Virus record (IMG/VR): IMGVR_UViG_3300019360_000007
Coordinates: 1 to 64,000 of that record
Length of the DNA stretch: 64,000 bases
Direction: 5' to 3' (one strand)
Source of the DNA: a virus
Shown here: in pieces, positions 35,220 to 58,327 of the stretch
Layout of the letters: every line of letters starts with the position of its first letter
Numbering within the stretch: position 1 is the stretch's first letter
Program-made: the position numbers and the translations under genes
Notes under the pieces: generated by a model
Databases searched by the model: none
Told to the model about the DNA's origin: nothing
What the model saw: only the letters and a program-made list of their open reading frames with translations

Positions 35220-36497
35220 CTACGGCTCGCCCGGACCCCTGAACCGCTCGTTCCTTGCGCCAGGGGTGGGATTCACAGTCGGAGGATCGTTGCCACGTCC
35301 GTGCGCGTTGGGTCTGTCTAGCGTCTGCGCGGGCATTTTGAAGACCGGCTTGCCGTGAAGCTGGACGGGCGGGTCCTGTCCCGACCGGGGGGGCTGCGGC
35401 TTCCCGGTCCTGACTGCTCCCGCCCGACCATCGACGAGAGCATCGTTGATGTTGCTCGCAGCCCGCATCCCCTCCGTTCGCGTGTCGAGCGACGTCGCTT
35501 GTGGGCGTCCTCCGCGACGCTGGGCCTCTCGGGCCTGCGCCGCGCGGTCGGCCGTCGTGGGGAGCCCTGCTTCAGCCCGCGCGTTCTCGTGCTCCTGACG
35601 AGCACGTTGGCGCTCTTGGTGCTGCTGTCGGAGCAGCGCCTGTCGTCTCGTTTCGCTCCGCAATGCCTCGTCGGGATCCGTGGGATCGAAAAACGAATCC
35701 CCATCGTGAGGCAGCGGGATCCCAGTCTCCTCGGGAACTTGCGTCGTGGACGGGACCTGTGGTCCTGCCGCCGGAGATGACGGCTCCTGGGATCGCGCCG
35801 GAGCCGTCGCCGCCGCGGGCACAGCGGAACGACGTCCAGGCGCCCGCTCTGGGGGAGGTTCGGACTCGGGAGCGGGCTCAAGCAGATCGTCCACGGCCTT
35901 CTGGACCGCCTCCACGGCCGATGTGTCCGGGGAGGTCGGCCTCGGACCGCCGGGAGTTCTTCCGTCCTGCTTGGCCTTGGTGTCGCGGAGTTCCTTGATG
36001 CGCTTCTCCAGCCTGGTGATCTCCTCCTCGACATCAATCGGCTCAAACTTGATGCTGCGCGACGCATTGATCTCAATGCGCCCGACGAGTTCACCGTACT
36101 TGGCGAACACCTCCGTCAGCATGGTCCTCGACCACTCGCGCGCGATCATGTCTCTGATCGCCTCCCACTTCGGGACGGACACGCTCTTGCCACCGTCGAG
36201 TTCCCCCGTCTCGATGTACTCGACACCTCGAAGGTCGAGATCACCGATCTGGACCAGCGAGAACCCCAGAGCCGCATGACGCATGCGGTCCATGAAGTCT
36301 GTGAATGCGGCTTGGTCCGGTTTCTTCTCGGACCCCGTCTCCATCGCGGCCTGAGCGTACCGCTGGACCTCTGTCTCCTGGTCGGGACGAAGGGCTCTCA
36401 GGGTGATCTGAAGACCTTGTGCCTCAAACGTGAATTCAAGGTCGCGGATGCTCTCGACTCTGGTGATCGCGGCCTCTAGGGCCTTCAGGTTGACCAT
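35220..36497 (-). CDS. Putative tail assembly chaperone 1, ~425 aa, with disordered Pro-rich C-half
   Basis: ATG 36497 with GGAG upstream; first gene after tail tube. Confidence 0.55.
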   Translation of the reverse strand: MVNLKALEAAITRVESIRDLEFTFEAQGLQITLRALRPDQETEVQRYAQAAMETGSEKKPDQAAFTDFMDRMRHAALGFSLVQIGDLDLRGVEYIETGELDGGKSVSVPKWEAIRDMIAREWSRTMLTEVFAKYGELVGRIEINASRSIKFEPIDVEEEITRLEKRIKELRDTKAKQDGRTPGGPRPTSPDTSAVEAVQKAVDDLLEPAPESEPPPERAPGRRSAVPAAATAPARSQEPSSPAAGPQVPSTTQVPEETGIPLPHDGDSFFDPTDPDEALRSETRRQALLRQQHQERQRARQEHENARAEAGLPTTADRAAQAREAQRRGGRPQATSLDTRTEGMRAASNINDALVDGRAGAVRTGKPQPPRSGQDPPVQLHGKPVFKMPAQTLDRPNAHGRGNDPPTVNPTPGARNERFRGPGEP

Positions 36498-36524
36498 GAC
36501 TCTCTCCACATCGTGGTGGAGCAG

Positions 36525-36722
36525 GTCGGTGGATCGTGCTCACAGCGCAAACGATTCACATGTGTGAGTGCCCGTGTACATGTACGTCTGACCGTCCCAC
36601 GTTGGGGAGGATGCGGACAGCTCGAAGTGGGATTCTTGCATTCCCATCTGATTCACGTTCACGTCTGCGTCTGTGACGCTTCCACCGATTGCTCGGGTTG
36701 AAAAACCCCCTGGCGGGAGGCG
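36525..36722 (-). ncRNA. Structured non-coding element, copy A (candidate cis-regulatory RNA)
   Basis: Colinear similarity to 50885-51065, including hairpin CCTCCC-CAACGT-GGGACGG (36592-36610) and AGACG(T)/GTGAA repeats. Confidence 0.5.
36700..36721 (-). terminator. Weak intrinsic terminator-like hairpin after the tail tube gene
   Basis: Minus strand GCCTCC-CGCCA-GGGGGT followed by TTTT, about 40 nt after the tube stop; stem has two G-U pairs. Confidence 0.35.
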
Positions 36723-36763
36723 CTGGCTTGGGCAGGATCACGAGACCGTACCCGAGAACTGGA

Positions 36764-37555
36764 CTAGACCGTCACGAAGTCGGAGGCGGCTCTCTGATCG
36801 CCCACGTTGTAGCGCACCGAGCCGACCTGGCCGATGGTCGGGTCGTTGCCGGTGGCGAGGAACTCGCCGTACTCGGACGAGAAGTCGTGCACGTCGGAGA
36901 TCGTGATGTCCCCGGTCTCCATGAGCATGCCAGTGTCGCGGCCCAGGTTCGTCAGAGACCACGAGTTGAACCAGCACGTCTCGTAGAGCGTGATGATGGC
37001 CGTGTGGCCGCGCAGGTCGCCGGGGAAGTTGTTCGGGTCGTTCGTGACCTGCGGGTAGGTGATCTCCTTGACGCCGCCGTCGAAGGTCCCGCCCCCGCCG
37101 TTGAACCCGACTCCGGCCTGTCCGGTGAGGTCGAAGTCCGCCAGCGTGGAGAAGACGAGCTGCTGCTCCACGTCGAACGGCCAGCGATGGTGACGCAGGG
37201 AGCGCACCGGTCCGCTGATCCCGCCCGCGTAGCCAGTCGCCTGCCAGAGGTTCGAGAGGTAGAGGAGAGCCCGCTCGAAGCCGGCAGTCATCGCCTCGGT
37301 CACGCTCGGGACGAGCTCGGCGATCATGTCGCCGAAGCCGATGCCGCGGAGAGTGTCGATGGTGCGCGTCTCGTTCGGGGTGAAGCTCGACAGCACGCCC
37401 ATCTGGAACAGGAGGTTCGCGTCGCTGCCGTAGGCCGGCGTCAAGACGCGGACCTTCTGGCTGACTGCCGTCCTCGTCTGCGGCGACGTGCCGTAGTCGT
37501 AGATGTAGCTGGAGCCCTGAACTCCCTGCGCCGGGTTGAGGTCTTTGTTGGCCAT
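36764..37555 (-). CDS. Tail tube protein, 263 aa
   Basis: GVLSSFTPNETRTIDTLRGIGFGDMIAELVP...RWPFDVEQ...TLYETCWFNSWS...METGDIT typical of large-myophage tube proteins; GAGGAAGG RBS; position between sheath and chaperones. Confidence 0.8.
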   Translation of the reverse strand: MANKDLNPAQGVQGSSYIYDYGTSPQTRTAVSQKVRVLTPAYGSDANLLFQMGVLSSFTPNETRTIDTLRGIGFGDMIAELVPSVTEAMTAGFERALLYLSNLWQATGYAGGISGPVRSLRHHRWPFDVEQQLVFSTLADFDLTGQAGVGFNGGGGTFDGGVKEITYPQVTNDPNNFPGDLRGHTAIITLYETCWFNSWSLTNLGRDTGMLMETGDITISDVHDFSSEYGEFLATGNDPTIGQVGSVRYNVGDQRAASDFVTV

Positions 37556-37645
37556 GATCGCCTTCCTCTCGTCAGGCGGCCGACCCCGGGGGGCCGTTCA
37601 CCGCGCAAAGTGGGGACGAGGGAGTCCCCTCCGAGAGAGAGGCGC

Positions 37646-38290
37646 CTATAGCCTGGCAAGCGAGACCAGCCAGCGGCGGGCAATGCGCGCGGCCACGCCC
37701 TCCGCGGCTCGCGGAGAGTCCCCAGGACCGGCACCTTCGCCCCTCGCCGCCCTCGCCAGCGGGTTGCCTTCCACGAGCCTCCAAGCCTCCAGGGCTCGCC
37801 TCATGGCCTTCCGCTTCTCGGGGTCCTTCTCGGACCGCAGACGACGTGCCAGCTCGGTCGGCGGCACGTTAATGAAGGTGGCCAGCGAATCAGAAGATCC
37901 ACCTCTCGCGAGCGACGCCTCTCGCGCCGCGATCTGCCGCCGCAGGCCGGGATGCAGGATGTTCCAGTGGGCGCGGATCCAGGCGGCGTCCGCCCAGACA
38001 CAGGCGTCGTGCTCGCCGCACAGCGTCGGGGTCCATCCCACGTTCTCGCTCGTGGCCATGACCAGACAGTACGCTCCGTCGCGCGCCATCTCCAGGACAT
38101 CGTGCGGAGGCAGGTGTCCCGTCTCCTCCGCGAACTCCCTCTCCGCCGCCGCGAGCGGGGACTCGCCGTTCTCCAGGTGTCCTCCTGGAACGGACCAGAG
38201 CCCGACATCGTCGGCATCAGGCCCCGGTGCCCGTCGAACGAGGAGAACGACCTTCCCGTCAGTGAGCCAGAGCCCTGCGCGCTCGATCAT
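37646..38290 (-). CDS. Nudix hydrolase, 214 aa
   Basis: Nudix box WSVPGGHLENGESPLAAAEREFAEETG; VLLVRR and EHDACVW flanking motifs. Confidence 0.88.
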   Translation of the reverse strand: MIERAGLWLTDGKVVLLVRRAPGPDADDVGLWSVPGGHLENGESPLAAAEREFAEETGHLPPHDVLEMARDGAYCLVMATSENVGWTPTLCGEHDACVWADAAWIRAHWNILHPGLRRQIAAREASLARGGSSDSLATFINVPPTELARRLRSEKDPEKRKAMRRALEAWRLVEGNPLARAARGEGAGPGDSPRAAEGVAARIARRWLVSLARL

Positions 38291-40703: not shown

Positions 40704-42404
40704 CTAACCGGAGATCTGGGCCCCGATGCGGGGCGGCTCAATGCCCAAGTCCAGGAGACGTCGCCTGAGAAAACCCTCGTCGAGCCCCTTCGGATCTGAC
40801 TGACGCACCACGAGTGTGGCGTATCCCTCCTCCCGAGCTCGCCGCAGTTTGAGAAGATCGAGCCGAACGCGACGCTCAAAGTTCTCAGGGACCTTGTGCC
40901 AGTACGGGATGAACTCCTCGTGCTGACGCCCGTGCGCCTCGACCAGGAGCTTCACGAGAGGAAAATAGCCGTCGTAGCGCAGAGGATAGTTGGTCTCCGG
41001 GTTCCTGATCCTCGTGTCCGTGTACTCCCACTCGTACGCCAGACCGCCGAGGACTTCGGCCACCCGGTCGAGCACCCGCTTCTGAAAAGCGAGACGGTTG
41101 CGGGTGGGGAGACCAAGCTGGCGGCAGTACCGACGGACGGCAAGTTGAGAACAGTCGCGCGCCTCGGAGGCTTCCGCCACGAGGACCCTGCCTGCGGAGT
41201 CCATGAAAGGGCGAAGTTGCTCCTCCGTAAGGTCCAACCGAAGCGCAGTCTTGTCCCTGATGACGGACCCTGTCGCCACGAGAAGGGACTGGGGAAACAG
41301 AGACTTGTAGGCCACATGTGCGTGGGCATTCTGGACGTGACTGTTCAAAGCCTCAGCCCTGTGGCCACACAGGCGGCATGTGACGTAGTCTTCGGGTTCG
41401 CACTTGCCTTCCCACTGGGCTTCGATTTCCTCAAGTTGGCGGGCGGCCCGGCAGTCATCACAGCGCGTCTCGTGCGTCTCGGGAGCAAGAAACGCCGACA
41501 CCTCGTGTAGGACGCGACAGTCGGGACACTCGATCTGCTTCGTAGCCCCCGCATGCGAGGACCTTTCCCATGACTCGGATTGCGCTTGAGACCTCCGCTC
41601 AGTCAAGGAATGCGCCCGGATCGGGACGTCGCCATGCTTGTTACGGTACTCGTCGGCCGTCAGCCCGTGCGCCTTGAGGTGCGTCGCCAGGGTCTCCCCA
41701 CGAAACTCGCACTCTCGGCATCGCACGTAGTCGTCGTTCTCGATCTTGTCGACCCACCGGAGGTCCTCCTGGCCGTCCCTCCAGACGCGGTGAGCCTCAT
41801 CCCCAGCAGCACAGCGATGACGCACGTGGGAGGCGAGTCCGCGTACCCCCTCGCACCGGAATCCACAAATCGGGCACTCCCGATCAGGATGACGCTCGGC
41901 ACCCCTGCACTCCGAGCACAGAAGCCGGAGAGAGCGCGCAATCGAAACTCGATTTGCCCGGTAGATCTCGCCGCACCCCGAACACAAGACGTCAATCTCT
42001 TCAAGATCCCGAGGGCCCGAACGCGCCTGATTGTGCGCTACCGCCTTACGACGTTGGAGGTCCCGCGCACGCCCCTGCATGAGGGTTTCGCCGAATTCCT
42101 CCCCCCACCACCGCCTGACGACCGAGAAGTGAACCCCCGTGTGCTCAGCCACGCTCTTGAGAGAAAGCTCCCCATGGAACATAGCCACCGCCGTGATTCG
42201 TGCCCGGTCGAGTTCGACGCCCTTGAGACGGCTCCTCTGGCCACTCTGGGCCGCTCTTTTACGGGCCTGCAAGCCCTCCTCGCCGTGCACCTCAACCCAC
42301 CACCCCCGGACTTGATCCCGAGGAATGCTGAGGGACTGAGCTGCGTCGACGAGCTTAACGCCCTCATCGAACATTTGGAGGGCGCGCTGACGGATGCCGT
42401 CCAT
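40704..42404 (-). CDS. Free-standing putative homing endonuclease: 2x HTH, multiple Zn fingers, C-terminal PD-(D/E)XK-like nuclease, 566 aa
   Basis: Two HTH repeats ending V(R)GWW/VRRWW; CxxC pairs; DYVRCREC...LATHLKAHGLTADEYR (Ros/MucR-like finger); NPETNYPLRYDGYF...LLVEAHGRQH nuclease motif; codon usage visibly less GC3-biased. Confidence 0.7.
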   Translation of the reverse strand: MDGIRQRALQMFDEGVKLVDAAQSLSIPRDQVRGWWVEVHGEEGLQARKRAAQSGQRSRLKGVELDRARITAVAMFHGELSLKSVAEHTGVHFSVVRRWWGEEFGETLMQGRARDLQRRKAVAHNQARSGPRDLEEIDVLCSGCGEIYRANRVSIARSLRLLCSECRGAERHPDRECPICGFRCEGVRGLASHVRHRCAAGDEAHRVWRDGQEDLRWVDKIENDDYVRCRECEFRGETLATHLKAHGLTADEYRNKHGDVPIRAHSLTERRSQAQSESWERSSHAGATKQIECPDCRVLHEVSAFLAPETHETRCDDCRAARQLEEIEAQWEGKCEPEDYVTCRLCGHRAEALNSHVQNAHAHVAYKSLFPQSLLVATGSVIRDKTALRLDLTEEQLRPFMDSAGRVLVAEASEARDCSQLAVRRYCRQLGLPTRNRLAFQKRVLDRVAEVLGGLAYEWEYTDTRIRNPETNYPLRYDGYFPLVKLLVEAHGRQHEEFIPYWHKVPENFERRVRLDLLKLRRAREEGYATLVVRQSDPKGLDEGFLRRRLLDLGIEPPRIGAQISG

Positions 42405-42440
42405 GACGAGTCACCCTACTAGAAGTAGGATGACTCGTCA
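42404..42440 (-). promoter_or_regulatory. 17-bp hairpin sequestering RBS and first base of the endonuclease start codon
   Basis: Minus strand TGACGAGTCATCCTACT-TCT-AGTAGGGTGACTCGTCA-(TG); 16 Watson-Crick pairs plus one G-U. Confidence 0.75.
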
Positions 42441-42482
42441 ATAGGACAGAATTTTTGCTCGTGAAGGCCCAATCGACACACC

Positions 42483-42526
42483 TCATTCACGACAAACGAC
42501 CCACCAAGGACCGAAATCGTGAATGA
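42483..42526 (-). promoter_or_regulatory. Stem-loop immediately 3' of the sheath stop codon (mRNA stabiliser or processing site candidate)
   Basis: Perfect 10-bp inverted repeat TCATTCACGA...TCGTGAATGA; no U-tract. Confidence 0.4.
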
Positions 42527-42531
42527 TTACG

Positions 42532-45500
42532 CTAACCTCCGAGATTCGAGCGCAGGTTGAACGTGATCACAATATAGAGCAAAGGAAAAATCGGTTGGTA
42601 GAATGCTTCCACCTCCACAACGGTGGGGTCGTTCGTTGTGCGCGCCTGGATGCCGGTGAACGCCGCGATGATCTCGGCGTTCTTGAGCGCCTTCATGGTG
42701 GTCGCGAGCTGGCCCTCGATCTCGGACAGGACGCCCGGCAGGAACTTGATGCCGATGAACCTGTCGAGGTCGCGCCGCGCTGCCCTCTGGACCTCGTCGG
42801 CGATGGTGATGACCGTCGGGAGCTTCGTGAGGATGTTCGTCGGATCGGTCGTGAGTCCCTGCCGGACCCGGATGACCGTCCCCCGCTGCTCCATGACGGT
42901 GACGCCCTGCACGGCGACCTGGTTCTGCTCGACCGCGTCGAGTTTGCGGGCCAGCTCGTCGAACCCGACGATCCGAGCCCTCGTCCACGGGGTCGCCACG
43001 TCGATGTTCGGCGACGCCCTGTTGCCCGCCATGGCGGCCGCGAGGTAGGTACCGTCCACCAGGAACTGCTTGAAGTTCCCGAGCGCGTCCTGGATCGTCA
43101 GGGTGACGATGTCCGGGTACACGAGGCGGATGCGCGTGTTCTCGATCTGCTGCGCGATCCCGCCGACTTCCGTGGGCTGCGTGCCCGAGGCCACGCCGAT
43201 GATGCCGGTCCGCTCGGCGCGGAACCGGATGCTGGACTGGATGTCGCAGTGGTTGCTGAGCTGGAGGAACAGGTCGATGTCGTCGCCCCGCATCGGGGTG
43301 ATCGTGTCGAGCACCGCGCCTCCAGGCAGAGAACCGCGCAGGTCGTTGAGCGCGTCGCTGTAGCTCTGCGTGCTCGCCTGGTTGCTTCCCGGGATCTTCG
43401 GCACCTGCTTGATGCCGAGGACCACGGCTCCGTTGAGGAACGCCAGGAACGCCGCGAGGGAGACCTGGTTGTCCGGCGTCGTGTCCCCGTAGTTCCGCTC
43501 CACGGCCCTCTGGCTCGTGAAGAGCATCGTCTCGAAGTCCGCCGCCGTCTTCGCGTAGTTGTAGGTGATGAAGTAGGAGTCCCCGACGGCGGGCTCCTGG
43601 CCCCCGCGGTCGAAGGTCTCGACGATGGCCGTGTCGCCCTGCGGGATCGACGATCCCTCGGTGTTCGCCACGATCAGCTCGAGCCCGGAGATCGAGTTGA
43701 CCGGGATGTTCGCGTCGGTCGTGACGAGCTTGCGCACCTGGAACGTGAACGAGGCCCCGGCCCCCGTCGGGTAATCGGCCCCGCCCGTGCGCGGGAGAAT
43801 CGTGAACACGAGACCCGTCACCGTGTCGCGGTAGCTCTGGCTGATCATCCCGTCCTGGCCCACGCCGCTGTTGAAGCACGACGTGTTGGCCGAGCCCGAC
43901 CCGTCGACGGGGTCGCTGCTCGTGACGAAGAAGCCCTGGAACCCCGACTCTCCCGCGGCGCCCTGGCCTGACGTGACGCCGAGGCCCGTCCCGGTGAGCA
44001 GCCAGTCAGCCGTGGTCGCGGTCTCGAACAGGATGTTCGACGAGGACCCGAGCCCGACGATGTTGTTGGCCTGGCTCTCGATGAACAGGAACTCGTTGTT
44101 CGCCGAGTCGCGCTCGACTCCCGCGAGTGCCTGGGCCGCGAACCACGTCAGGTCAGGCATCTGGTAGTCGAGGATGGCCCCGTTGATCGTCGAGCTGTGG
44201 TGCATCATCAGCGCGGAGGCCACGAGCTCGGGATCGACCGTCGAGCGCGCCGCGGTCGCGCCCTCGGAGAACCCGAGCACGTTGTTGGCATTGCCGTTGC
44301 CGAGGGTGATGGCCGAGTTCGTGGTCACGATCCCGCTGACGAGGCGGATGCCGGCACCCTCCTGGGCCACCACGGAGGCCGGGAGACCGGCCCCGACCGC
44401 GGCGTCCTGGATCTGCTTGAGCACCGTGTTCGGGAACGTGATCGGTCCGAGCGGCACGTCGGCCTGTCCGGCCGCCGGGATCGCCGCGCCCACCGAGTCC
44501 TTGAAGACGACGGTGAACGCGGTCCCGTCGATGTTCACCTTCCAGACGTTGTTCTGCGGGTTCACGCCGCCCGACCCGTAGAAGCGCACGCGAGGCTGGC
44601 CATCGCGAGCGTCAGCGAAGGTACCGGCCGGGACTTGGCCGTCCTTGAAGCCGACCTCTCCGAACAGGGACGCGGGACGCAGCGTGGCCTCGATCCCGGC
44701 GAGGCCGACAGCCTTGGGCTGCAGGCCCGTCTCCGTGACCGCGTTCGTGCCCTGCGTGATCAGGCTCGTCTGCGCGACCTGGCTCTGCGGCTCCAGCGAG
44801 CCGGAGCCGGGGAGGACGCGGTTGCGCATGATGATCCGGTCGTAGATGAGCCGTCCCGACGTTCCCGACACCGTGAAGCGGCGCGCGATGTCGCCGTCCA
44901 CGATCTTGGTCTGCTCCTGGCTCGGCAACGCGTCCGTGGACAGGCCGCAGATGATGGCGAAGTCCTCCGCGACGGTGGCGCCGTCGAGGAATTCCCAGAC
45001 GCCTCCGCCGAGACCGGAGCCTCCCGTGAGTGTCGCGCCCGATACCGGCAGGCGGATGGCGGTCGAGCTCGCCAGGGTGATGAAGTTGCCCGTCGGACCG
45101 GGCACCGCCGCCGTGATGTCGACGACGGCCGAGGTGCCGCTCGAGTTGTCCGCGGTCACGATACCCACGAGCCCGTTCAGCGCGTCGGAGATGGCTGCCA
45201 CGAGGGACGACGCCACCTGCACCGTCGTCGCGCCGCCCACGAACGTCGCTCCCGAGACGGGCAGGCGCACACCGGTCGACGAGGCAATCGTGTAGGTGTT
45301 GCCGATCACGCCGGGCGTGTCGGACCAGACGGTCACCGTGGTGCTGGTGCCTCCCGCGTTGTCGGCCGACACCGCGGCCGCCAAGCCGTTGCCGAGGTCG
45401 TTGATGGCGGCCACGATGCTGCTCGCGACCGTGAGGTTCGTGCCCACGCCGCCCGCCAGCGTCGGACCGCTCCGGATGAGCCTCGTCGCGCTGCTGCTCG

Positions 45501-48500
45501 CGAGGACGATGGTGTTGCCGGCGTTCCCCGGCGTGACGGCCGTGATCGTCACGACCGCCGCGACGACACCGGTGAACACGAGGGCGGGGAGAGACGCCGT
45601 GATCGACGCCCCGAGCGAGGTGGCGACGGTGGTGTTGTCGCCCACGCCACCGAGCAGCGTGCCCGCCGAGAGCGTGATCCTCGTGGCACCAGTCGACTCC
45701 ATCAGCAGGATGCCGTTTCCGACGGTCCCCGGCGTGAAGGACATGATCGTGACGACGTTGCTGGTGCCGCCCGCGTTGGTCGCGACGACTCCTCCCACCA
45801 GACCGTTGCCCGCGTCGGCGATGGCTGCCACGAGACTCGTGGCGGCCGAGATGTCGTCGCCCACGCCTCCCGTGAGCGTCGCGCCGGAGAGCACGAACCT
45901 GCCCGCGGCGGTCGTGCTGAGCGTAATCGTGTTCCCCACGGCTCCCGGCGTGACGGCCGTGAGGACCATGGTCGTGGCCCCCGAAGACGTCGCGGTGACG
46001 TCCACGGCGAACGAGTTGGCGACGTCGTTGACGGCCGCAATCGCGTCGTCGCGCGCGGACGTGTTCGTGCCCAGGCCGCCCGCGAGCGTCGCGCCGGCGA
46101 AGGTGAGGCGCGCCGGCGCGGTCGACACCGTGGAGATGGAGTTGCCGCCGGTCCCGGGCGTGATCGCCCGGAGGTCCACCGTGGCCGACGTGCCGCCCGT
46201 GTTGTGCGCCTGCACCGTGCTGGTCAGGCCATTGAGAGGATCGAGGATGGCCGCAACGATGGCGGTGGCCGTCGTGATCTCGTCGCCGACGCCGCCGGCA
46301 AACGTCGCGGAGATCGTGACGGTGCCGTCGGAGGACAGGTTGGCCACGGCGTTCGCCGCCATGCCCGGCACCGTCCACGTCACCGTGACGTCGTTCGGAC
46401 CGGGGCCGACCGCCGCGCTCGAGAACGCGGCGAACGAGTTGAGCGGGTCGTTGAGGGCGGCCGCGATGTCGGCGGCGATGGCCGCCGTCGTGCCCAGCGT
46501 GTTGTCGTAGTCGTTCGCGCCCGGAGTACGAGGACCGCCGGCCGGGACGAGGACGTACGGACCACCCGCGATGGCGCCGGTGTCGATGGTGATCGTCGCC
46601 GACGAGGGGGAGGCCGTCACCGTGATCGTCGCCGTCGCCTGGGTGCCAGCATCGAAGTTCAGTCCGCCCGGCGTCGTAACGTTGTCCGCCGTGAGCGGGA
46701 TGCCGGCGATGGTGATCGTGTCCCCGTAGAGCACGCCCGTGCTCGGGAGCGCCGTGGTGACGACGGTCAACGTGCTGAGAGCACGCACGCCCGCGAAGAA
46801 GTCGTCCGCGCCCGAGGTGCGGGCGACGTCGACGGGAGTCAGCACGTTGCCGTTGAGCGTGAGCGTGTCCGCGGCGACGACCGGGTACGGGGCCGCCGAG
46901 GCCACCCGGACGCCGCTGAACCCGACGGTTCCGGTCGCGGCCGTGCCGACGTTGAAGTCGAGGCCACCCGGCGTCAGGGTGTTGCTCGCCGTGAGGGTCA
47001 CGGGGCCGCCACCGACGACGGACGTGTCGATGGTGATCGTGTCCCCGTACTGGACGCCCATTAGAGTGGCCGTGCCCGACGCACGGGTGCCGACGTCGAA
47101 CTCGTTCGCCGCCGGTGCCCCCGAGACGCCGAGGAACACTTGGCCGTCCACGGTGACCGTGTCGCCTGGGATCGGCCCGGCGACGGTGATGGTGCCCGTC
47201 GCGCGCGTGCCCTCGTTGAAGTTCAGGCCGCCCGGCGTCTGGGCGCCGGCCGCCGTGATCAGGACAGGTCCGCCGCCGGCATCGATGGTGAAGGTGTCGC
47301 CCGGCTGGACGCCCATCGGCATGAGCGTCGCGCGTGCTTGGCCCGTGTCGAAGTTCTGCGCGCCCGAGATCTGCGCGAGATCCCCCGTCAGGGTCACGCC
47401 GTCGATGGTGACGGTGTCTCCGAGAACCGCGAGGGCCGAGGTCACGGTCCCGGTGGCGAAGGTGCCGAGGTCGGTCGGGGTCGCCGAGAACGTGAACCGC
47501 ATGCCTCCGTCGGCGTTCGCCGTGCACGTGATGTCCATGCCGGAGAAGCTGGCGGGGAGCGCCCCGATGGCCGTCTGGAGCGCGGAGTCGACCGCCGCCG
47601 CCATGGTCGTCGGCGACGTGTAGGTTCCCGGGGCGATGGTCGCCGTGACGGGACCCGTGGGTCCGTTGGTCACGCCGGTGTAGTTGAAGACGAGCTTGTC
47701 GTAGCGCCCGGCCGTGATCACCGTCGACCCGAGGAACCTCGTCGTCCCGTCGAGGAAGGGGTTGTTGGCGACGAGCTTCGCCTCGGCGTTGATCGCCTCG
47801 ACGTACGCGTCGGCGTTCACCGCCGTCTGCGAGGGCACCGTGACGGTGACGACGACGCCGTCCACGGTGAACGACACGTTGTCGTTGATCCCGCTGAGGA
47901 TGTCGTAGGTCGTCTTGCCGGAGTCGTCGGTGTACTGGATCTCCTCGCCGAGCAGGCTCGCGTAGAACCCGAGCCCCTGGATCCCGTGCGGGGCGGAGAG
48001 GTCGATGCCCGCCGCTCCGCCCGCCAGCGCGCTGCTGTCGATGGTGAAGCGGGCCCGGTCGGACGCACCCGAGACGAAGAAGTACGGGCCGGCGCCCGGC
48101 ACCGTGAACTTGGCGATGGTCGCGTCCTTGTCCGCGAACTGGACCGTGACTGTCTCCTCGACCGGCCCCTGCGTGCCGCCCTCGAAGTGAACGTCGGGCG
48201 TGAGCTCGCTGCCGGAGGGGAATTCGATGGTCACGCCCGTGAGCGCGGGACCCTTGCTCCCGAACTTCGGCGTGTAGATCGGGTTGCCGTTCTTGTCGAA
48301 CAGGAAGTACGTGCCGATGCCCGACGGTCCGCTGGTCTCGACCTGGACCGTGTACTCCTCGTCGACCATGATGTTGTACCAGAAGGTCGCGAAGACGTCG
48401 GCACCCACGGGAACCGGGTTCTCGAGCGTGATGATCGTCCCCTCGACCTTGGTCACCGACACGGCGCCCCGGTTGAGCGCGTCCTCGATGCCGAACCCCC

Positions 48501-49974
48501 AGAACGCCTGGACCAAGTTCGGGTTGTTGGTCGGCAGGTCGATGCGGGTGTTCGAGACCGAGAGGAACACGTCCTGCCCGAGCGGCGTGTCGCGCCCGTT
48601 GCCCGTCGTCGGCTGCGCGGGGAGACGGAACTGCGTGCGGCTCTCCACGGCGGGAATCACCGTGTCGACGACGACGACCTCCGTCGGCGCCATGAACCAG
48701 CGGTTGTCGATCAGGAGGGCCGAGATCTGCGTGGGCCCGAAGGGCGGAGCCCCCGGAGTCGTGATCCCGGGCGAGATCAGGAAGGCGGCTCCCCAGACGA
48801 TCAGGTCGTCCTTGAGAACGAAGTCCGCGCCCTCGATGAAGTCGTTGTTGCCGGGCACGATGCCGCAGCGGATGACCTCCGTGACGTTGATGTTCGCGAG
48901 GTAGTCGAACGTGTCCTGCCAGGTGTTGAAGAAGTATTGGATCGTGACGGTGTCGCCGACCGCCGGGGCGAAGGGCAGCGTCACGGCCCTGTTCTGGCCG
49001 TCGACCTCCGTCGGGATGACCTGGACCGAGTTGACGCGCACGGTCACCTTCGACGTGTCGGTCGTGGTGATGCCGCCGTTCGAGCCGTCGACGATAGGCC
49101 CGTTGAAGGTGAAGAACGTGCGGTTCCGACGCGTGTTCTGGTTCTGCGTGAAGCCGAGAACCGAGTTGGCCGTGCCGTTCCCGATCAGGAGACCGTTGTC
49201 GGCGACGAGGCGCACCGCCGTGAGGCCGAAGTTGTTGGTGTAGGTCGACGCCACCAGCGACGTGCCGGCCGCGGCCCCGTTGATCAGGGAGACCACCGTG
49301 GCGGCCGTGACGCTGCCGGTGGGGAACGTGGCGGTCACGACCTGCTGCGTAGTTGCCGACTGGTCGAAGTCCACCGTCACGAGGAACTGGTTGTTGGAGG
49401 AGGTGAACTCGTAGGCGTTGCCGATGGCCCCGTCGAGGATCGCTCCTTGCGTGGACACCTGGTCGGACAGGTTGTCCGTGATCTGCGTGTCGGTCCGCTT
49501 GAAGAAGTAGGTGACCCGGACGTCGTCGCCGAAGTCGGGCGCCGTGCTGATCTCGATCACGCCGATGTCGGCGCGGGCCACGCTCAGGACCACGTCGGGG
49601 CGACCGTTGATCGTGACCAGGATCGAGCTGGGGTCCGTGGCCGTCTTGCCGGAGCCTGACCCGTCCGTGATCGGGTAGTTGCGGACCCGGATACGGCGGC
49701 GCTCACCGTTGAAGTCGCCGAGGATGACCTCGCCGGTCATCGTGATCTCGACGACCGCGCGACCGGTCTCGTCCTCCTGGGGGACCTGCTGGTCGACCGA
49801 GCTGCTCGATCCGCGGATGACCTCCAAGTCTCGCTGCTGGAGCAGCTCGTTGCCCGTCCCGATGAGCACCGGAATGCGGACGCCCGCGAGGACGCCGGAG
49901 ACCGGCGAGTCGAACAGGGTTCGGGTATAGACGCCAGGTGGCGCGTAAATGGTCCCAGGAAAATCCGCGGGCAT
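42532..49974 (-). CDS. Giant tail sheath protein, 2480 aa
   Basis: N-term YAPPGVYTRT...IPVLIGTG and C-term sheath core (AFLNGA, ERTGIIG, RIRLVYP, YLAAAMAG, GVTVMEQ...RVRQGLTT, RFIG.K, DPTVVEVEAFYQPIFPLLYIVITF); AAAGGA RBS. Confidence 0.92.
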   Translation of the reverse strand: MPADFPGTIYAPPGVYTRTLFDSPVSGVLAGVRIPVLIGTGNELLQQRDLEVIRGSSSSVDQQVPQEDETGRAVVEITMTGEVILGDFNGERRRIRVRNYPITDGSGSGKTATDPSSILVTINGRPDVVLSVARADIGVIEISTAPDFGDDVRVTYFFKRTDTQITDNLSDQVSTQGAILDGAIGNAYEFTSSNNQFLVTVDFDQSATTQQVVTATFPTGSVTAATVVSLINGAAAGTSLVASTYTNNFGLTAVRLVADNGLLIGNGTANSVLGFTQNQNTRRNRTFFTFNGPIVDGSNGGITTTDTSKVTVRVNSVQVIPTEVDGQNRAVTLPFAPAVGDTVTIQYFFNTWQDTFDYLANINVTEVIRCGIVPGNNDFIEGADFVLKDDLIVWGAAFLISPGITTPGAPPFGPTQISALLIDNRWFMAPTEVVVVDTVIPAVESRTQFRLPAQPTTGNGRDTPLGQDVFLSVSNTRIDLPTNNPNLVQAFWGFGIEDALNRGAVSVTKVEGTIITLENPVPVGADVFATFWYNIMVDEEYTVQVETSGPSGIGTYFLFDKNGNPIYTPKFGSKGPALTGVTIEFPSGSELTPDVHFEGGTQGPVEETVTVQFADKDATIAKFTVPGAGPYFFVSGASDRARFTIDSSALAGGAAGIDLSAPHGIQGLGFYASLLGEEIQYTDDSGKTTYDILSGINDNVSFTVDGVVVTVTVPSQTAVNADAYVEAINAEAKLVANNPFLDGTTRFLGSTVITAGRYDKLVFNYTGVTNGPTGPVTATIAPGTYTSPTTMAAAVDSALQTAIGALPASFSGMDITCTANADGGMRFTFSATPTDLGTFATGTVTSALAVLGDTVTIDGVTLTGDLAQISGAQNFDTGQARATLMPMGVQPGDTFTIDAGGGPVLITAAGAQTPGGLNFNEGTRATGTITVAGPIPGDTVTVDGQVFLGVSGAPAANEFDVGTRASGTATLMGVQYGDTITIDTSVVGGGPVTLTASNTLTPGGLDFNVGTAATGTVGFSGVRVASAAPYPVVAADTLTLNGNVLTPVDVARTSGADDFFAGVRALSTLTVVTTALPSTGVLYGDTITIAGIPLTADNVTTPGGLNFDAGTQATATITVTASPSSATITIDTGAIAGGPYVLVPAGGPRTPGANDYDNTLGTTAAIAADIAAALNDPLNSFAAFSSAAVGPGPNDVTVTWTVPGMAANAVANLSSDGTVTISATFAGGVGDEITTATAIVAAILDPLNGLTSTVQAHNTGGTSATVDLRAITPGTGGNSISTVSTAPARLTFAGATLAGGLGTNTSARDDAIAAVNDVANSFAVDVTATSSGATTMVLTAVTPGAVGNTITLSTTAAGRFVLSGATLTGGVGDDISAATSLVAAIADAGNGLVGGVVATNAGGTSNVVTIMSFTPGTVGNGILLMESTGATRITLSAGTLLGGVGDNTTVATSLGASITASLPALVFTGVVAAVVTITAVTPGNAGNTIVLASSSATRLIRSGPTLAGGVGTNLTVASSIVAAINDLGNGLAAAVSADNAGGTSTTVTVWSDTPGVIGNTYTIASSTGVRLPVSGATFVGGATTVQVASSLVAAISDALNGLVGIVTADNSSGTSAVVDITAAVPGPTGNFITLASSTAIRLPVSGATLTGGSGLGGGVWEFLDGATVAEDFAIICGLSTDALPSQEQTKIVDGDIARRFTVSGTSGRLIYDRIIMRNRVLPGSGSLEPQSQVAQTSLITQGTNAVTETGLQPKAVGLAGIEATLRPASLFGEVGFKDGQVPAGTFADARDGQPRVRFYGSGGVNPQNNVWKVNIDGTAFTVVFKDSVGAAIPAAGQADVPLGPITFPNTVLKQIQDAAVGAGLPASVVAQEGAGIRLVSGIVTTNSAITLGNGNANNVLGFSEGATAARSTVDPELVASALMMHHSSTINGAILDYQMPDLTWFAAQALAGVERDSANNEFLFIESQANNIVGLGSSSNILFETATTADWLLTGTGLGVTSGQGAAGESGFQGFFVTSSDPVDGSGSANTSCFNSGVGQDGMISQSYRDTVTGLVFTILPRTGGADYPTGAGASFTFQVRKLVTTDANIPVNSISGLELIVANTEGSSIPQGDTAIVETFDRGGQEPAVGDSYFITYNYAKTAADFETMLFTSQRAVERNYGDTTPDNQVSLAAFLAFLNGAVVLGIKQVPKIPGSNQASTQSYSDALNDLRGSLPGGAVLDTITPMRGDDIDLFLQLSNHCDIQSSIRFRAERTGIIGVASGTQPTEVGGIAQQIENTRIRLVYPDIVTLTIQDALGNFKQFLVDGTYLAAAMAGNRASPNIDVATPWTRARIVGFDELARKLDAVEQNQVAVQGVTVMEQRGTVIRVRQGLTTDPTNILTKLPTVITIADEVQRAARRDLDRFIGIKFLPGVLSEIEGQLATTMKALKNAEIIAAFTGIQARTTNDPTVVEVEAFYQPIFPLLYIVITFNLRSNLGG
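45001..47466 (-). repeat. Nested repeat block inside the sheath: 7 N-half repeats then 7 C-half repeats
   Basis: aa ~837-1159: 7x AT.T.T....GDT.TI.G...(N/D)F..G; aa ~1160-1658: 7x A....AAI.D..N.....V...A.TPG..GN.I.L.S......GATL.GG. Confidence 0.85.
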
Positions 49975-49975
49975 G

Positions 49976-50704
49976 TCAGCTTCCTTTCAGTGCGGCTCGG
50001 AAGGCGTCGAGGGAGATCCGCGTGAAGTGGAATCCGCGACACGGAGTTCCACGACGAATCGACTTGGCGACGGCATCGAAGGACAGGCCAAGGGCCTTGG
50101 CTGCTTCGGTCGCCGACGAAAAAACGGAACCGTCGGAGCGTCGGACGGGATTCGCGTTGCCTTCACGAATGCGACGCTTGTGTTCCTCGGTGAAGGCCTG
50201 TCCCGTATGGGCGGCAGACATCTTGGCGCGCGTCTCTTCCGATGGCACACGACCCGAATGGCTCGTGGACATTCGCGCCCTGCTCTCCGCGGAATGCCTT
50301 CGTCCCTTCCAGAAATCACCGCGCCCATTCTCCAAGTTGGCGAGCTGTCTCGCGGAGACCCCGCGAGCCTTGGCCGAGGTCGACATCCTCTTGCGCGTCT
50401 CCTCGCTCGCGACAACTCCGTCTCCGCCCTTGGTCAGGTTGTAACCATGCGCGCGCTCGGCCGAACGGTAGAGGGCGATATAGTGCCGCTCCCGTTCGTT
50501 GGCCTCGGCGAGGGTCGCGATTCCCTTCTCAAGCACTTCCCAGGCCATGGCGGGTCCGTACTTGCGAAGAGCCGCGGAGAAATGGCGACTCCTCGTGCGA
50601 GCCAGGTAGAGGTGCTCGATCTTGCGCTGGTCGAGACTGCGCCGCGTGATCCCGACGTAGACCTTCCCGCTGGGCGACGTGACCCTATAGACCACGTACG
50701 TCAC
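49976..50704 (-). CDS. GIY-YIG homing endonuclease with NUMOD3-like repeats and C-terminal HTH (NUMOD1-like), ~242 aa
   Basis: VVYRVTSPSGKVYVGIT, R..EH, EANERE, GYNLTKGG, repeats SEETRKRMS/HSAESRARMS/SEETRAKMS/TEEHKRRI, FSSATEAAKALG. Start reassigned to GTG 50704. Confidence 0.88.
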   Translation of the reverse strand: MTYVVYRVTSPSGKVYVGITRRSLDQRKIEHLYLARTRSRHFSAALRKYGPAMAWEVLEKGIATLAEANERERHYIALYRSAERAHGYNLTKGGDGVVASEETRKRMSTSAKARGVSARQLANLENGRGDFWKGRRHSAESRARMSTSHSGRVPSEETRAKMSAAHTGQAFTEEHKRRIREGNANPVRRSDGSVFSSATEAAKALGLSFDAVAKSIRRGTPCRGFHFTRISLDAFRAALKGS

Positions 50705-50884
50705 GTCCGCAGGACGCTCCTTCCCGCTCGCGCTCGACTCGGAGGAGGAGCACGTCGCGTCGGGCCACGGGGTCGCCGTGGCGAGTTCGGTGGAGGTCTG
50801 GAGCATCGAGGTCGGCTGTTCGCTCGGGATCACTCCCGTCTGTCGGGCGCACTTCTCCTGCGAGCGCGTGACGCCCTGGGTGCA

Positions 50885-51065
50885 GTCGCGGATCGCGCTC
50901 GGTAGAGCGCCTTGGTTCACGTCTCCGTGCCCGTCTCCGTCGGTCTGTCGGTTCACGTCTAGCCGTCCCCTCGCGGGGAGGAAGCGTTCTGCGGGCCTGC
51001 TAGGCAGGCTGCGTTCACATCTCGTCTGTCGGTCTGGTCACGTCTGGGTCCTCCCTGCGGGAGGC
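50885..51065 (-). ncRNA. Structured non-coding element, copy B (candidate cis-regulatory RNA)
   Basis: Four hairpins including CCTCCCC-GCGA-GGGGACGG (50963-50981, GNRA loop) separated by AGAC(G/C) repeats; colinear with 36525-36722. Confidence 0.5.
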
Positions 51066-51084
51066 CGGGGTTGCGACTGTCGCC

Positions 51085-51552: not shown

Positions 51553-51599
51553 GGTCGCTCCGTCTACTAGGTCGCCCCTATAGACACGAAAACGAGCGC

Positions 51600-52859: not shown

Positions 52860-52951
52860 CTCCTACCCCTCGATCTCCGAGACCAGGACGTGGTCGCTCA
52901 CAGCGCGAGGGCTCCGGGAGTGCTCACCTGGAGGCCTTCCGCATAGGACGA

Positions 52952-58084: not shown

Positions 58085-58093
58085 CTTCCGACT

Positions 58094-58327
58094 CTACCCG
58101 CCGTTGAGAGCCTTCTCCTGCTCCTCGTCGAGGAGATAGCGCCGGACGGCGCGAAGCTCGGCGACGTAGTTGTCGAAGTGCGTCCCTACCCGGTCACCCA
58201 GGGTCATCGTGTGCGAGTGCGTCACGACGGAGGGGAGCTTCTCGAAAGACCAGAACGTGACGCCGTCCTGGTTCGTGTACTCGTACACCCGGTTCCCGCG
58301 CCCGATGGTGGCGTCCTTCTCGGTCAC
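58094..58327 (-). CDS. Hypothetical protein, 77 aa
   Basis: GTG 58327 overlapping upstream TGA with GGAGG RBS (MTEKDATIGRGNRVYEY). Confidence 0.55.
   Translation of the reverse strand: MTEKDATIGRGNRVYEYTNQDGVTFWSFEKLPSVVTHSHTMTLGDRVGTHFDNYVAELRAVRRYLLDEEQEKALNGG

Follow-up and report, generated by a model that had tools for sequence, protein, structure and literature searches.

Huge phages need sheath and tube subunits by the hundreds or thousands and just a few copies of the neighbouring assembly proteins, all encoded in one long transcription unit. How such unequal output might be set is the question raised by two similar stretches of DNA, copies A and B, that flank the presumed sheath-tube block of an uncultured giant phage. 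The window analysed here comprises 64,000 nt of an 83-kb contig of this phage, and all coordinates follow the numbering of the window. It is well supported that A and B are paralogues and represent a structured RNA domain of ~200 nt, hitherto undescribed, that is present in a clade of uncultured huge phages. Judging from sequence comparisons, this RNA pair probably helps to set the expression of these tail genes.

Extent and genomic setting of the two copies

A sequence-only reading of the window had described an element of ~180-200 nt in two copies, at 50885-51065 and 36525-36722. Both copies are real and every listed feature was found on the minus strand at its given place, but the extents were too short. 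Copy A truly spans 36495-36763 of the minus strand, between the stop codon of the upstream gene (36764) and the ATG at 36497, and copy B spans 50844-51084, its bounds running from 51084 to ~50844. An outer long-range helix (P1), present in both copies, was absent from that description (Table 1).

Copy B lies in the intercistronic leader of a 2480-aa gene (presumed sheath, 7.4 kb), and copy A in the leader of the gene that follows a 263-aa gene (presumed tube). The element was rightly said to bracket the presumed sheath-tube block, and the same gene block is bracketed in relatives too. Downstream of A one strand is used throughout, over more than 36 kb of densely packed genes that include giant ORFs, and the upstream genes have very high GC3 values (0.91-0.94). 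A and B are presumably carried on late tail-gene transcripts.

The names sheath and tube are presumptive, drawn from the order of the genes and a single weak lead in the ESM Atlas. For the tube protein, Pfam searches of 41 homologues revealed no tail family and no hit of a PDB profile search had an E-value under 0.26; the ESM Atlas lead had a score of 0.95, and Phi812_tail_tube was found on 11% of one cluster. Pfam, PHROGs and PDB searches with the sheath protein returned nothing. The downstream 425-aa protein gave weak tail-assembly-chaperone leads (scores 0.79-0.80).

In three genomes (G000, G001 and G002) a 0.83-kb gene for a homing endonuclease separates B from the start of the sheath gene; it is missing at this site in the other relatives examined. 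Copy B is conserved nonetheless, a finding that speaks against a proximity-based control of sheath translation.

Paralogy, structure and conservation of the domain

The motifs reported as common to A and B were confirmed, namely the AGACG/GTGAA repeats, the ACGGGCAC/GTGAA tract, GCGCT..GAGC(A/G)CGATCC..CGAC and the core CC-TCCC(C)-loop-(G)GGGA-C-GG-NN-AGACGT. A 28-nt pattern for this core matched 2 places in the window and none in 100 shuffles. Global alignment of A with B gave a score of 38, against a mean of 10.9 (sd 3.0) for shuffled controls, none of which reached 38 in 500 trials (z ~9). With the core removed, the 3' flank still gave z 7.8 (0/500) and the 5' flank z 3.0 (7/500), and comparison of A with 82 real windows of the contig gave a mean of 11.2 and a maximum of 33. 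A strict local alignment recovered the core alone (z 3.4). A and B are collinear paralogues. No overrepresented 10-12-mers indicating a genome-wide repeat were detected in the contig; AGACGTGAA with one mismatch was found 17 times in the whole window, against 15.1 expected, and is not enriched, while its 3 exact matches all fall within A or B.

Each element consists of two tandem modules, in which a bulged hairpin comes before an A-rich tract of AGAY words and a UUGNGCUGU box. In the predicted architecture, P1 closes the domain around both modules. A module begins with a G+C-rich hairpin that is clamped by 2 bp and has a bulged pyrimidine on its 3' side, continues with an unpaired A-rich tract of 30-50 nt carrying 4-8 AGAY words spaced ~6 nt, and ends with a small hairpin and the UUGNGCUGU box, which in B forms the 5' arm of P6. 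Copy A has in addition a terminator-like hairpin ahead of the domain and, behind it, a covarying hairpin over the ribosome-binding site.

Table 1. Features of copies A and B and of the gene inserted next to B
Feature	Position	Strand	Observations
A, -10-like TANNNT motif GGGTACGGT	36745..36753	-	13 nt past the stop codon of the upstream gene
A, terminator-like hairpin CCTCCC-GCCA-GGGGG, then TTTTT	36701..36720	-	from terminator scan
A, P0 hairpin CCGA-GCAA-UCGG	36685..36696	-	3' arm overlaps P1 5' strand; invariant across 10 seeds
A, P1 5' strand UCGGUGG	36682..36688	-	partner 36526-36532; 96% paired; 3/7 pairs compensatory
A, P2 hairpin GCGUC-ACA-GACGC	36667..36679	-	compensatory pairs 5/5; 93% of cells paired
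A, P3 variable hairpin	36628..36646	-	weak: 65% of cells paired
A, box 1 UUCGAGCUGU	36617..36626	-	~-126 to -142 relative to the start codon among close orthologues
A, P4 core hairpin CC-UCCC-loop-GGGA-C-GG, then UCAGAC	36592..36610	-	compensatory 4/7; 93% of cells paired
A, box 2 UUUGCGCUGUGA	36540..36551	-	invariant in seed
A, P1 3' strand CCACCGA	36526..36532	-	partner of 36682-36688
A, P5 hairpin CUCCAC-loop-GUGGAG	36504..36521	-	over the ribosome-binding site; compensatory 5/6; 94% of cells paired
B, P1 5' strand	51073..51080	-	partner 50882-50889; 8/8 pairs compensatory; 94% of cells paired
B, H2 hairpin GG-CCUCCC-GCA-GGGAGG-A-CC, then CAGAC	51047..51066	-	compensatory 7/7; 79% of cells paired
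B, P3 hairpin GCCUGC-CUA-GCAGGC	50995..51009	-	compensatory 6/6; 76% of cells paired
B, P4 core hairpin CC-UCCCC-GCGA-GGGGA-C-GG, then CUAGAC	50963..50981	-	compensatory 4/6; 90% of cells paired
B, P6 hairpin GCGCUC-UACC-GAGCGC	50895..50910	-	counterpart of A box 2; compensatory 6/6; 86% of cells paired
B, P1 3' strand	50882..50889	-	helix also seen when B alone is folded (centroid)
B, 3' hairpin CAGGGCG...CGCCCG enclosing CGC..GGAG	50844..50878	-	in B orthologues by eye, and in the centroid fold
GIY-YIG homing endonuclease gene	49976..50806	-	inserted between B and the 2480-aa gene; Pfam GIY-YIG and NUMOD3, PHROG homing endonuclease

The pairing was assessed with an A-type model (R1) and a B-type model (R2), and covariation was evident in homologues of both types. 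Compensatory changes were counted at 19 of the 30 pairs of the A-type (shuffle mean 9.1, 0/500; 3-7 when the partners were slid) and at 31 of the 33 pairs of the B-type (shuffle mean 16.1; 10-17 when slid), and 91% (A-type) and 86% (B-type) of cells were paired, against 38-57% and 36-49% with slid partners, in alignments that were fitted to the models and are therefore biased towards structure. Folding of the single sequences was unremarkable (A, z -2.5, 1/200; B, z -1.2, 26/200). The stem of P3 has a wholly different sequence in A and in B. The GCGA loop and the bulged C described for P4 of B were both confirmed; across the family, the stem and bulge of the core hairpin are kept while the loop varies (GCGA, GCAC, CUCG, UUCG), which fits a partner that recognizes the shape and stem of the hairpin.

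A sense-strand RNA is indicated by the word CUUCGG, found 15 times against 0 for its complement, and each element has 5.1-5.8 AGAY words (1.7 expected), compared with 0.3-0.6 of the complement word. The numbers of G-U and A-C cells (38 vs 20 in the A-type, 34 vs 35 in the B-type) do not settle the strand. The tracts contain 35-39% A, and co-occurrence peaks at lag 6 (1.36-1.43; 0.93-1.09 at lag 4).

Neither copy behaves like a small protein-coding ORF, with a shared frame and indels in threes. As had been proposed, no reading frame is shared: 41 of the 45 indel runs in A and 56 of the 61 in B are not multiples of 3, and stops interrupt all three frames in 5/10 A-type and 9/10 B-type seeds. The further suggestion of a small RNA is unlikely, since the closing helix and P5 tie A to the downstream mRNA and the 3' end of A has no terminator. 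The ribosome site had a predicted accessibility of 0.36 in A-type loci (n=24) and 0.38 in B-type loci (n=14), with no difference between the types (p 0.21).

A third copy of the 28-nt core hairpin, without the rest of the element, was located at 72039-72066 of the same 83-kb contig, beyond the end of the window. This minimal copy C comprises a hairpin, the core hairpin, UCAGAC, ~20 nt and a start codon; it is syntenic in G003, with the stem UCCCC/GGGGA changed to UUCCC/GGGAA. All three core hairpins have a strong hairpin before them and a gene after them. The box CGCUGUGA was also found in the leaders of two further genes of the contig (37598-37608 and 52898-52908); no others were obtained with up to one mismatch, and every one is on the sense strand. 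Some B-type copies, such as that of L088, carry the box as UGCUCUUU. In leaders of other huge-phage genomes, CUUGNGCU was noted as the box word of tandem modules made of a hairpin and an unpaired tract. Box 2 starts 47-60 nt upstream of the start codon in 16 of 19 A-type loci; one more has it at -72 and two have no match to the pattern.

Of 49 distinct tube loci, 36 have G[GT]TANNNT (GGTANNNT), the motif at the 5' end of A, beside the stop codon in long gaps and 27-68 nt upstream of the start codon in short ones, and this TANNNT motif may serve as a promoter. An E. coli-type promoter scan reported nothing at this end of A; a canonical TTGACG-N17-TAGGGT precedes the gene at 42404. A CTATAG-type motif is conserved ~95 nt upstream of the tube gene; before B it was found within 1.6 kb in just 4/18 loci and is absent in most relatives. 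The first hairpin of A has the form of an intrinsic terminator, a G+C-rich stem-loop with a T run (36719-36706 plus TTTTTCAACC), in a region where the scan gave 9 sites against 6.6 expected, so that the pattern is weak by itself. Close A orthologues keep the hairpin and T run with a different stem sequence, and distant ones have other stems in place of P0 (by eye). At the first hairpin of B no intrinsic terminator was found, as no T run follows 51047 and the hairpin sits within P1.

Among relatives, R1 matched 34 of 77 tube loci at E <= 5e-4, in the same place every time, and R2 matched 22 of 38 sheath loci. R2 also matched, over its full length, A-type elements of other phages (L013, 1.5e-5; L012, 2.9e-5; L020, 3.9e-5; L009, 1.2e-4); it gave no match at E <= 1 on the copy A of G000, and R1 recovered only the core of B (E 0.86). 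In the 92%-complete G003 (618 kb), full-length model matches were obtained at these two sites and nowhere else. The last 203 nt of the element are 0.63-0.85 identical to those of 9 orthologues, against 0.25-0.63 at four-fold sites of the flanking genes. A and B change more slowly than these sites and are under purifying selection. The element is dispensable, as some relatives have a gap of 18-124 nt after the tube gene and three (L100, L105 and L109) have no element ahead of the sheath gene. When R1 was run with filters off on 14 loci with long gaps or insertions, L050 alone gave a match at the expected place (E 0.01), and the look-alikes seen by eye in L029, L031, L082 and L084 are thus unconfirmed. 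The exact two-block A-type pattern was present in 23 metagenome contigs and absent from the genome collection, and blastn of phage GenBank records with 2 kb around A gave no match. A search of sequencing runs listed no RNA run, and one DNA run that shared a small fraction of words.

A scan of Rfam had been suggested as a check, and it gave 0 matches in the whole window; with Rfam 15 and E up to 10, both regions reached chance-level scores of 11.9-12.8 bits, against thresholds of 39-80. ARAGORN found 0 tRNA or tmRNA genes in the whole window, and no tRNA-like fold was seen. Literature searches on RNA secondary structure in huge phages and on structured noncoding RNAs of phages listed nothing relevant to such an RNA. 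Of the cis-acting RNA that had been suggested, the non-coding, conserved and structured character, the transcribed strand and the place outside Rfam are thus borne out; the suggested actions (antitermination, processing, protein loading, dosage tuning) are putative.

Candidate functions of the leader domains

The reading that we favour, with a probability of roughly 0.45, is that the paralogous leader RNAs are docking platforms for a multimeric factor that controls translation or mRNA fate. The bulged hairpins and periodic AGAY tracts would be docking sites for a putative multimeric RNA-binding factor of phage or host origin, and its binding would set the use of the downstream start site or the survival of the mRNA segment. 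Output of the abundant sheath and tube proteins could in this way be uncoupled from that of their neighbours.

The arrangement might instead serve processive antitermination, in which the hairpin and linear box of the nascent RNA would load onto RNA polymerase, alone or with Nus-type factors, and the polymerase so modified could then read through the sheath gene (7.4 kb) and the packed genes downstream of A (over 36 kb). The modules do combine a hairpin with a linear box, the same box stands in two further sense-strand leaders, the genes downstream of A share one orientation and include giant ORFs, and known sites such as put (PMC9378689) occur twice per phage genome. The box CGCUGUGA shares 6/8 letters with lambda boxA, from which the host's own boxA may differ. 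As in a nut or rrn site the hairpin precedes the box, but in A a terminator-like hairpin lies upstream of the domain, which would thus be unable to suppress it; an elongation signal does not need the fixed distance between box and start codon, and no Rfam family matched. We regard this function as rather unlikely. RNA processing is an unlikely reading as well, although both are serious competitors of the docking platform. Here a site-specific endoribonuclease would cut beside the bulged hairpin, so that the upstream mRNA would end in a hairpin, the downstream one would begin with a hairpin, and the sheath-tube segment would gain a half-life of its own. The position of all three core hairpins between a strong hairpin and a gene, including the minimal and syntenic copy C, is in its favour, as are the GC3 values of the upstream genes and the conservation of B despite the inserted gene, which fits action at the transcript level over action at a single ribosome site. 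RNase III needs a longer hairpin than the core hairpin, however, no nuclease candidate was found, and the closing helix, AGAY tracts and boxes would be left unexplained.

A riboswitch sensing a metabolite or ion, with P1 closing the aptamer and P0 or P5 as expression platform, would account for the multi-stem domain and its conserved unpaired letters, for the location of P5 over the ribosome-binding site and for the overlap of P0 with the 5' strand of P1, seen by eye in close and several distant orthologues. It is very unlikely all the same, as the unpaired, repeat-rich linkers of 30-50 nt are unlike compact aptamers, B has no comparable platform and one domain would have to suit two genes of opposite dosage needs. 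The complementarity between the 5' strand of P1 and the anti-SD arm that is seen in the close group is lost in L035, L039, L025 and L045 (by eye). Release of the ribosome site by the 5' strand of P1 was considered as a general switch and rejected, by eye only. Least probable, and likewise very unlikely, is a DNA-level element, in which a late transcription factor would act on promoters or operator arrays and palindromic half-sites would mimic pairing. The inner stem TCCC-N6-GGGA is indeed palindromic around a variable centre, the AGAY words could represent iterons, the -10-like motif is conserved at the 5' end of A and a canonical promoter precedes the gene at 42404. A compensatory helix with strands ~150-185 nt apart cannot act in duplex DNA, though, the bulge is conserved on a single strand, and CUUCGG and AGAY are strongly asymmetric between the strands.

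An extension of the docking-platform reading, by analogy and quite improbable as a whole, is a phage-wide 'late-leader code' in which one dedicated multimeric RNA-binding protein that senses unassembled tail subunits would read both domains together with the minimal hairpin of copy C and the boxes found in further late leaders, giving assembly-coupled feedback on sheath, tube and chaperone synthesis. Its logic would be comparable to that of FliW-CsrA-flagellin, with unrelated RNA and protein parts.

Relation to known RNA elements and significance

Coat-protein and other operator hairpins, as in MS2 and PP7, have a short stem with a single bulged base at a fixed place, tolerate loop changes and lie near a start codon. 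The core hairpin resembles them in its short bulged stem near a start codon and its tolerance of loop changes; it differs in the pyrimidine bulge on the 3' strand, the free variation of the loop, the three occurrences per genome and the YYAGAY after the hairpin. Intercistronic control regions also exist in T4-type phages, in the gene 18-19 region and as promoter-stem-loop cassettes. Both systems have folded RNA and regulatory signals near the genes for sheath and tube, and cassettes that recur between late genes, but without any likeness in sequence or structure, the present element being a closed, covarying two-module domain of a separate clade.

Sites made of a hairpin and linear boxes are also described for lambda nut, the boxA-boxB leaders of rrn and HK022 put (PMC9378689, PMC3177189, PMC2800207), and PMC3177189 treats NusB-NusE with an 8-nt BoxA. 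As in these systems, two look-alike RNA sites per phage genome, each with a hairpin and a linear box, occupy leaders of long operons; in contrast to them, the element is three times larger, is outside Rfam and has a box with just 6/8 letters of boxA, a terminator upstream of the element in A and a box at a fixed distance from the start codon. The TRAP leaders of Bacillus trp genes (PMC4027176) have 11 (G/U)AG triplets and a ring-shaped multimeric reader that controls termination or translation. The likeness lies in an unpaired leader tract with a short word repeated every few nt. Instead of ~11 (G/U)AG triplets 2-3 nt apart, each element here has two AGAY tracts with 2-9 words of period ~6, flanked by bulged hairpins and enclosed by a long-range closing helix.

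A conserved, covarying full-length domain at both borders of the sheath-tube block gives a concrete handle on how subunit ratios are set in these phages, and the domain is amenable to probing, pull-down and reporter constructs without culture of the phage. It would extend the short list of structured regulatory RNAs of phages by a new family, and the bulged hairpin with its periodic AGAY tract may define a new RNA-protein recognition pair.

Likeness, spread and selection of the copies

All the features listed in the sequence-only reading were found on the minus strand, both in copy A (after the presumed tube gene) and in copy B (before the presumed sheath gene). The 28-nt core pattern occurred at two sites in the window and in none of 100 shuffles. 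The two copies are indeed alike, being collinear over ~190 nt; their global alignment scored 38, and shuffles averaged 10.9 (sd 3.0; 0/500 reached 38). Without the core, z was 7.8 for the 3' flank and 3.0 for the 5' flank (7/500 shuffles); strict local alignment recovered only the core. A third core (C) stands alone at 72039-72066 of the contig (G000), beyond the window. Copy C is syntenic in the related contigs G001 and G003, and its G003 counterpart carries a compensatory stem change from UCCCC/GGGGA to UUCCC/GGGAA. The core-hairpin pattern had three matches each in G000 and G003, all of them on the gene strand, and the reversed control pattern gave no match in either and one in G002.

Homologues of the 263-aa protein were found in 77 IMG/VR loci (36-97% identity, contigs up to 619 kb) and those of the N-terminus of the 2480-aa protein in 38, and A- and B-like architecture occupies the post-tube and pre-sheath gaps of many of these loci. 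Using covariance models built from ten close orthologues each, the A-type element was detected in 34 of the 77 tube loci (model R1, E <= 5e-4), in the syntenic place every time, and the B-type in 22 of the 38 sheath loci (model R2). Full-length R2 matches to A-type elements were also obtained in other phages (L013, 1.5e-5; L012, L020 and L009), which supports homology of the whole domain, beyond the core; against this, R1 recognized no more of B than its core (E 0.86), and G000's own copy A was not matched by R2. In the nearly complete G003 (618 kb), R2 matched B and A only, 11 kb apart. The element is not universal. The gap from tube to next gene is only 18-124 nt in a dozen relatives, nothing comparable to B was present upstream of the sheath gene in L100, L105 and L109, and two short-gap relatives retain a pre-sheath core-like hairpin alone.

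The absence of a shared reading frame was borne out, with no frame held in common and most indels not multiples of three (41/45 in A, 56/61 in B). Over its last 203 nt, A shares 63-85% identity with nine orthologues, compared with 30-63% at four-fold degenerate sites of the tube gene and 25-40% at those of the downstream gene. Judged by these comparisons, the element is selected and non-coding.

Folding and anatomy of the domain

Run on the close A-type sequences, RNAalifold predicted a closing long-range helix, P1, between UCGGUGG and CCACCGA; in more distant orthologues P1 was recognized by eye with other sequences (GGCGAC/GUCGCC, GGUGGUG/CACCACC and GCGAUUGC/GCAAUCGC). Covariation, anticipated in homologues, is present. 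In model-guided alignments 91% of A-type and 86% of B-type cells were paired, falling to 38-57% and 36-49% with slid partners. Compensatory pairs numbered 19/30 in A-type (shuffle mean 9.1, 0/500 reaching 19; slid 3-7) and 31/33 in B-type (shuffle mean 16.1, 0/500 reaching 31; slid 10-17), counts taken from structure-fitted alignments and inflated by related sequences. So modelled, there is support for all five B helices and for P1, P2, P4 and P5 in A, where P3 is weak (65% paired). Single-sequence folding energies were ordinary (z -2.5 for A, -1.2 for B).

Inside P1, each domain holds two tandem modules. The module begins with a G+C-rich hairpin (H2 or P2, and P4, the core hairpin) that has a 2-bp clamp and a bulged pyrimidine on its 3' side, with the word AGAY two bases on, and continues as an unpaired tract of ~38 nt (35-39% A). 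Each element contains 5-6 AGAY words, 1.7 being expected, and the tracts prefer a spacing of 6 (lag 6, 1.36-1.43), not 4 (0.93-1.09). AUGUGAA lies close to the tract end, after which come a small hairpin (P3, P6) and a UUGNGCUGU box. Of the 19 A-type loci examined, 16 have box 2 starting 47-60 nt upstream of the start codon. At <=1 mismatch, the only further boxes in the 83-kb contig are in the leaders of the tube and 419-aa genes, both on the sense strand, where they follow a hairpin and precede the start codon by 38-42 nt; the tube-leader box is retained in nine close relatives.

Genes and signals around the copies

The G000 contig (83,087 bp, 65% G+C) is 16% complete as estimated by CheckV, implying a source phage of several hundred kb. 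Third-position G+C assigns essentially all genes to the minus strand, and gp25-like and Baseplate_J proteins encoded downstream in the same strand run indicate a contractile-tail module. The names tube and sheath are presumed and neither is confirmed: no match came from sequence searches of Pfam, PHROGs and PDB, and support comes from gene order, very high GC3 (0.93 in both genes) and an ESM Atlas lead (score 0.95) to the phi812 tail-tube family, which is assigned to 11% of one cluster. For the 425-aa gene that follows A, leads to a tail-assembly chaperone are weak.

Features of the contig (window coordinates unless stated)
Feature	Position	Strand	Remark
Copy A	36495-36763	-	
Box 2 of A	36540-36551	-	
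Box 1 of A	36617-36626	-	
263-aa ORF (presumed tube)	36764-37555	-	
UUGCGC(U/G)GUGA box	37598-37608	-	tube leader, <=1 mismatch
YCTATAGSC	37644-37652	-	
TTGACG-N17-TAGGGT	42405-42445	-	canonical promoter-like, 8 nt before ATG at 42404
Terminator-like hairpin, T-rich tail	42497-42513	-	immediately 3' of 2480-aa stop codon
2480-aa ORF (presumed sheath)	42532-49974	-	
GIY-YIG/NUMOD3 homing endonuclease	49976-50806	-	free-standing, between B and 2480-aa gene
TCTATAGGG	50683-50691		within endonuclease gene
Copy B	50844-51084	-	
TCTATAGGG	51576-51584		16 nt past 419-aa stop codon
UUGCGC(U/G)GUGA box	52898-52908	-	419-aa leader, <=1 mismatch
GGGTAGAGT	58091-58099	-	4-6 nt upstream of start codon
Minimal copy C (L003)	contig 72023-72091		GC hairpin, core hairpin + UCAGAC, ~20 nt to small gene beginning MTDEKLSGYRTSDMYYAAYLKVAG
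GGGTAAGGT	contig 80977-80985	-	4-6 nt upstream of start codon

The tube gene is followed by a terminator-like hairpin with TTTTT, and the motif GGTANNNT lies between stop codon and hairpin; 36 of 49 distinct loci have this motif. Its conservation, its placement 27-68 nt upstream of the start codon in short-gap relatives and the use of TAGGGT as the -10 of the canonical site lead us to suspect that a host-type promoter lies at the 5' end of A. On that view A would be a ~240-nt 5' leader; the terminator-like hairpin downstream of GGTANNNT is left unexplained by such a promoter. The canonical site itself implies a putative leaderless mRNA for its gene, which is HTH/ROS-MucR/endonuclease-like, and hints at an actinobacterial-type host. 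GGGTAGAGT and GGGTAAGGT are possible -10 elements of the leaderless type, or may belong to ribosome-binding sites. YCTATAGSC, which most relatives (loci L009-L067) conserve ~60-95 nt ahead of the tube start codon, is a candidate phage-specific late promoter; TCTATAGGG is present at two further sites, past the 419-aa gene and within the endonuclease gene.

A conserved Zn-ribbon gene ends directly upstream of B. The endonuclease gene that separates B from the sheath start was seen here in G000, G001 and G002 only; it has lower GC3 than its neighbours, and its stop codon is 1 nt upstream of the sheath ATG. In L034 and L064 the tube gene and the next gene are separated by inserts of 854 and 1010 nt, the former with a GIY-YIG-like translation by eye.

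Proposed mode of action, and novelty

The conservation, structure and position of A and B are established. P4, in which the stem sequence is conserved, the bulge fixed and the loop variable, could together with the periodic AGAY tracts be where a multimeric RNA-binding factor docks. P5, predicted to pair with the ribosome-binding site, would tie at least copy A to translation initiation. Sense-strand RNA is favoured by the loops (15 C(UUCG)G, the complementary word 0), by the strong strand asymmetry of AGAY and by the P5 pairing; counts of G-U versus A-C cells (38 vs 20 in A-type, 34 vs 35 in B-type) did not discriminate between the strands. A DNA-level element is a less likely reading, as is a riboswitch.

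The predicted stronger masking of the ribosome site in A than in B was not borne out (0.36 vs 0.38), and B persists 0.83 kb from the sheath start, which suggests that B acts on the whole transcript. Weighed with the P5 link, these two results keep as serious rivals both endonucleolytic punctuation of the transcript and processive antitermination, the latter being in keeping with a hairpin plus boxA-like box and with long operons.

As the sequence-only reading had supposed, the element matched no family in Rfam 15, and no description of such an RNA turned up in the literature searched. TRAP-type leaders, nut/put sites and bulged operator hairpins are its nearest working analogues, membership being established for none. 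We regard it as a genuine and so far undescribed family of structured RNAs whose general kind is known; since its box recurs in the tube and 419-aa leaders, it belongs, as an elaborate form, to a broader set of late-gene leaders.
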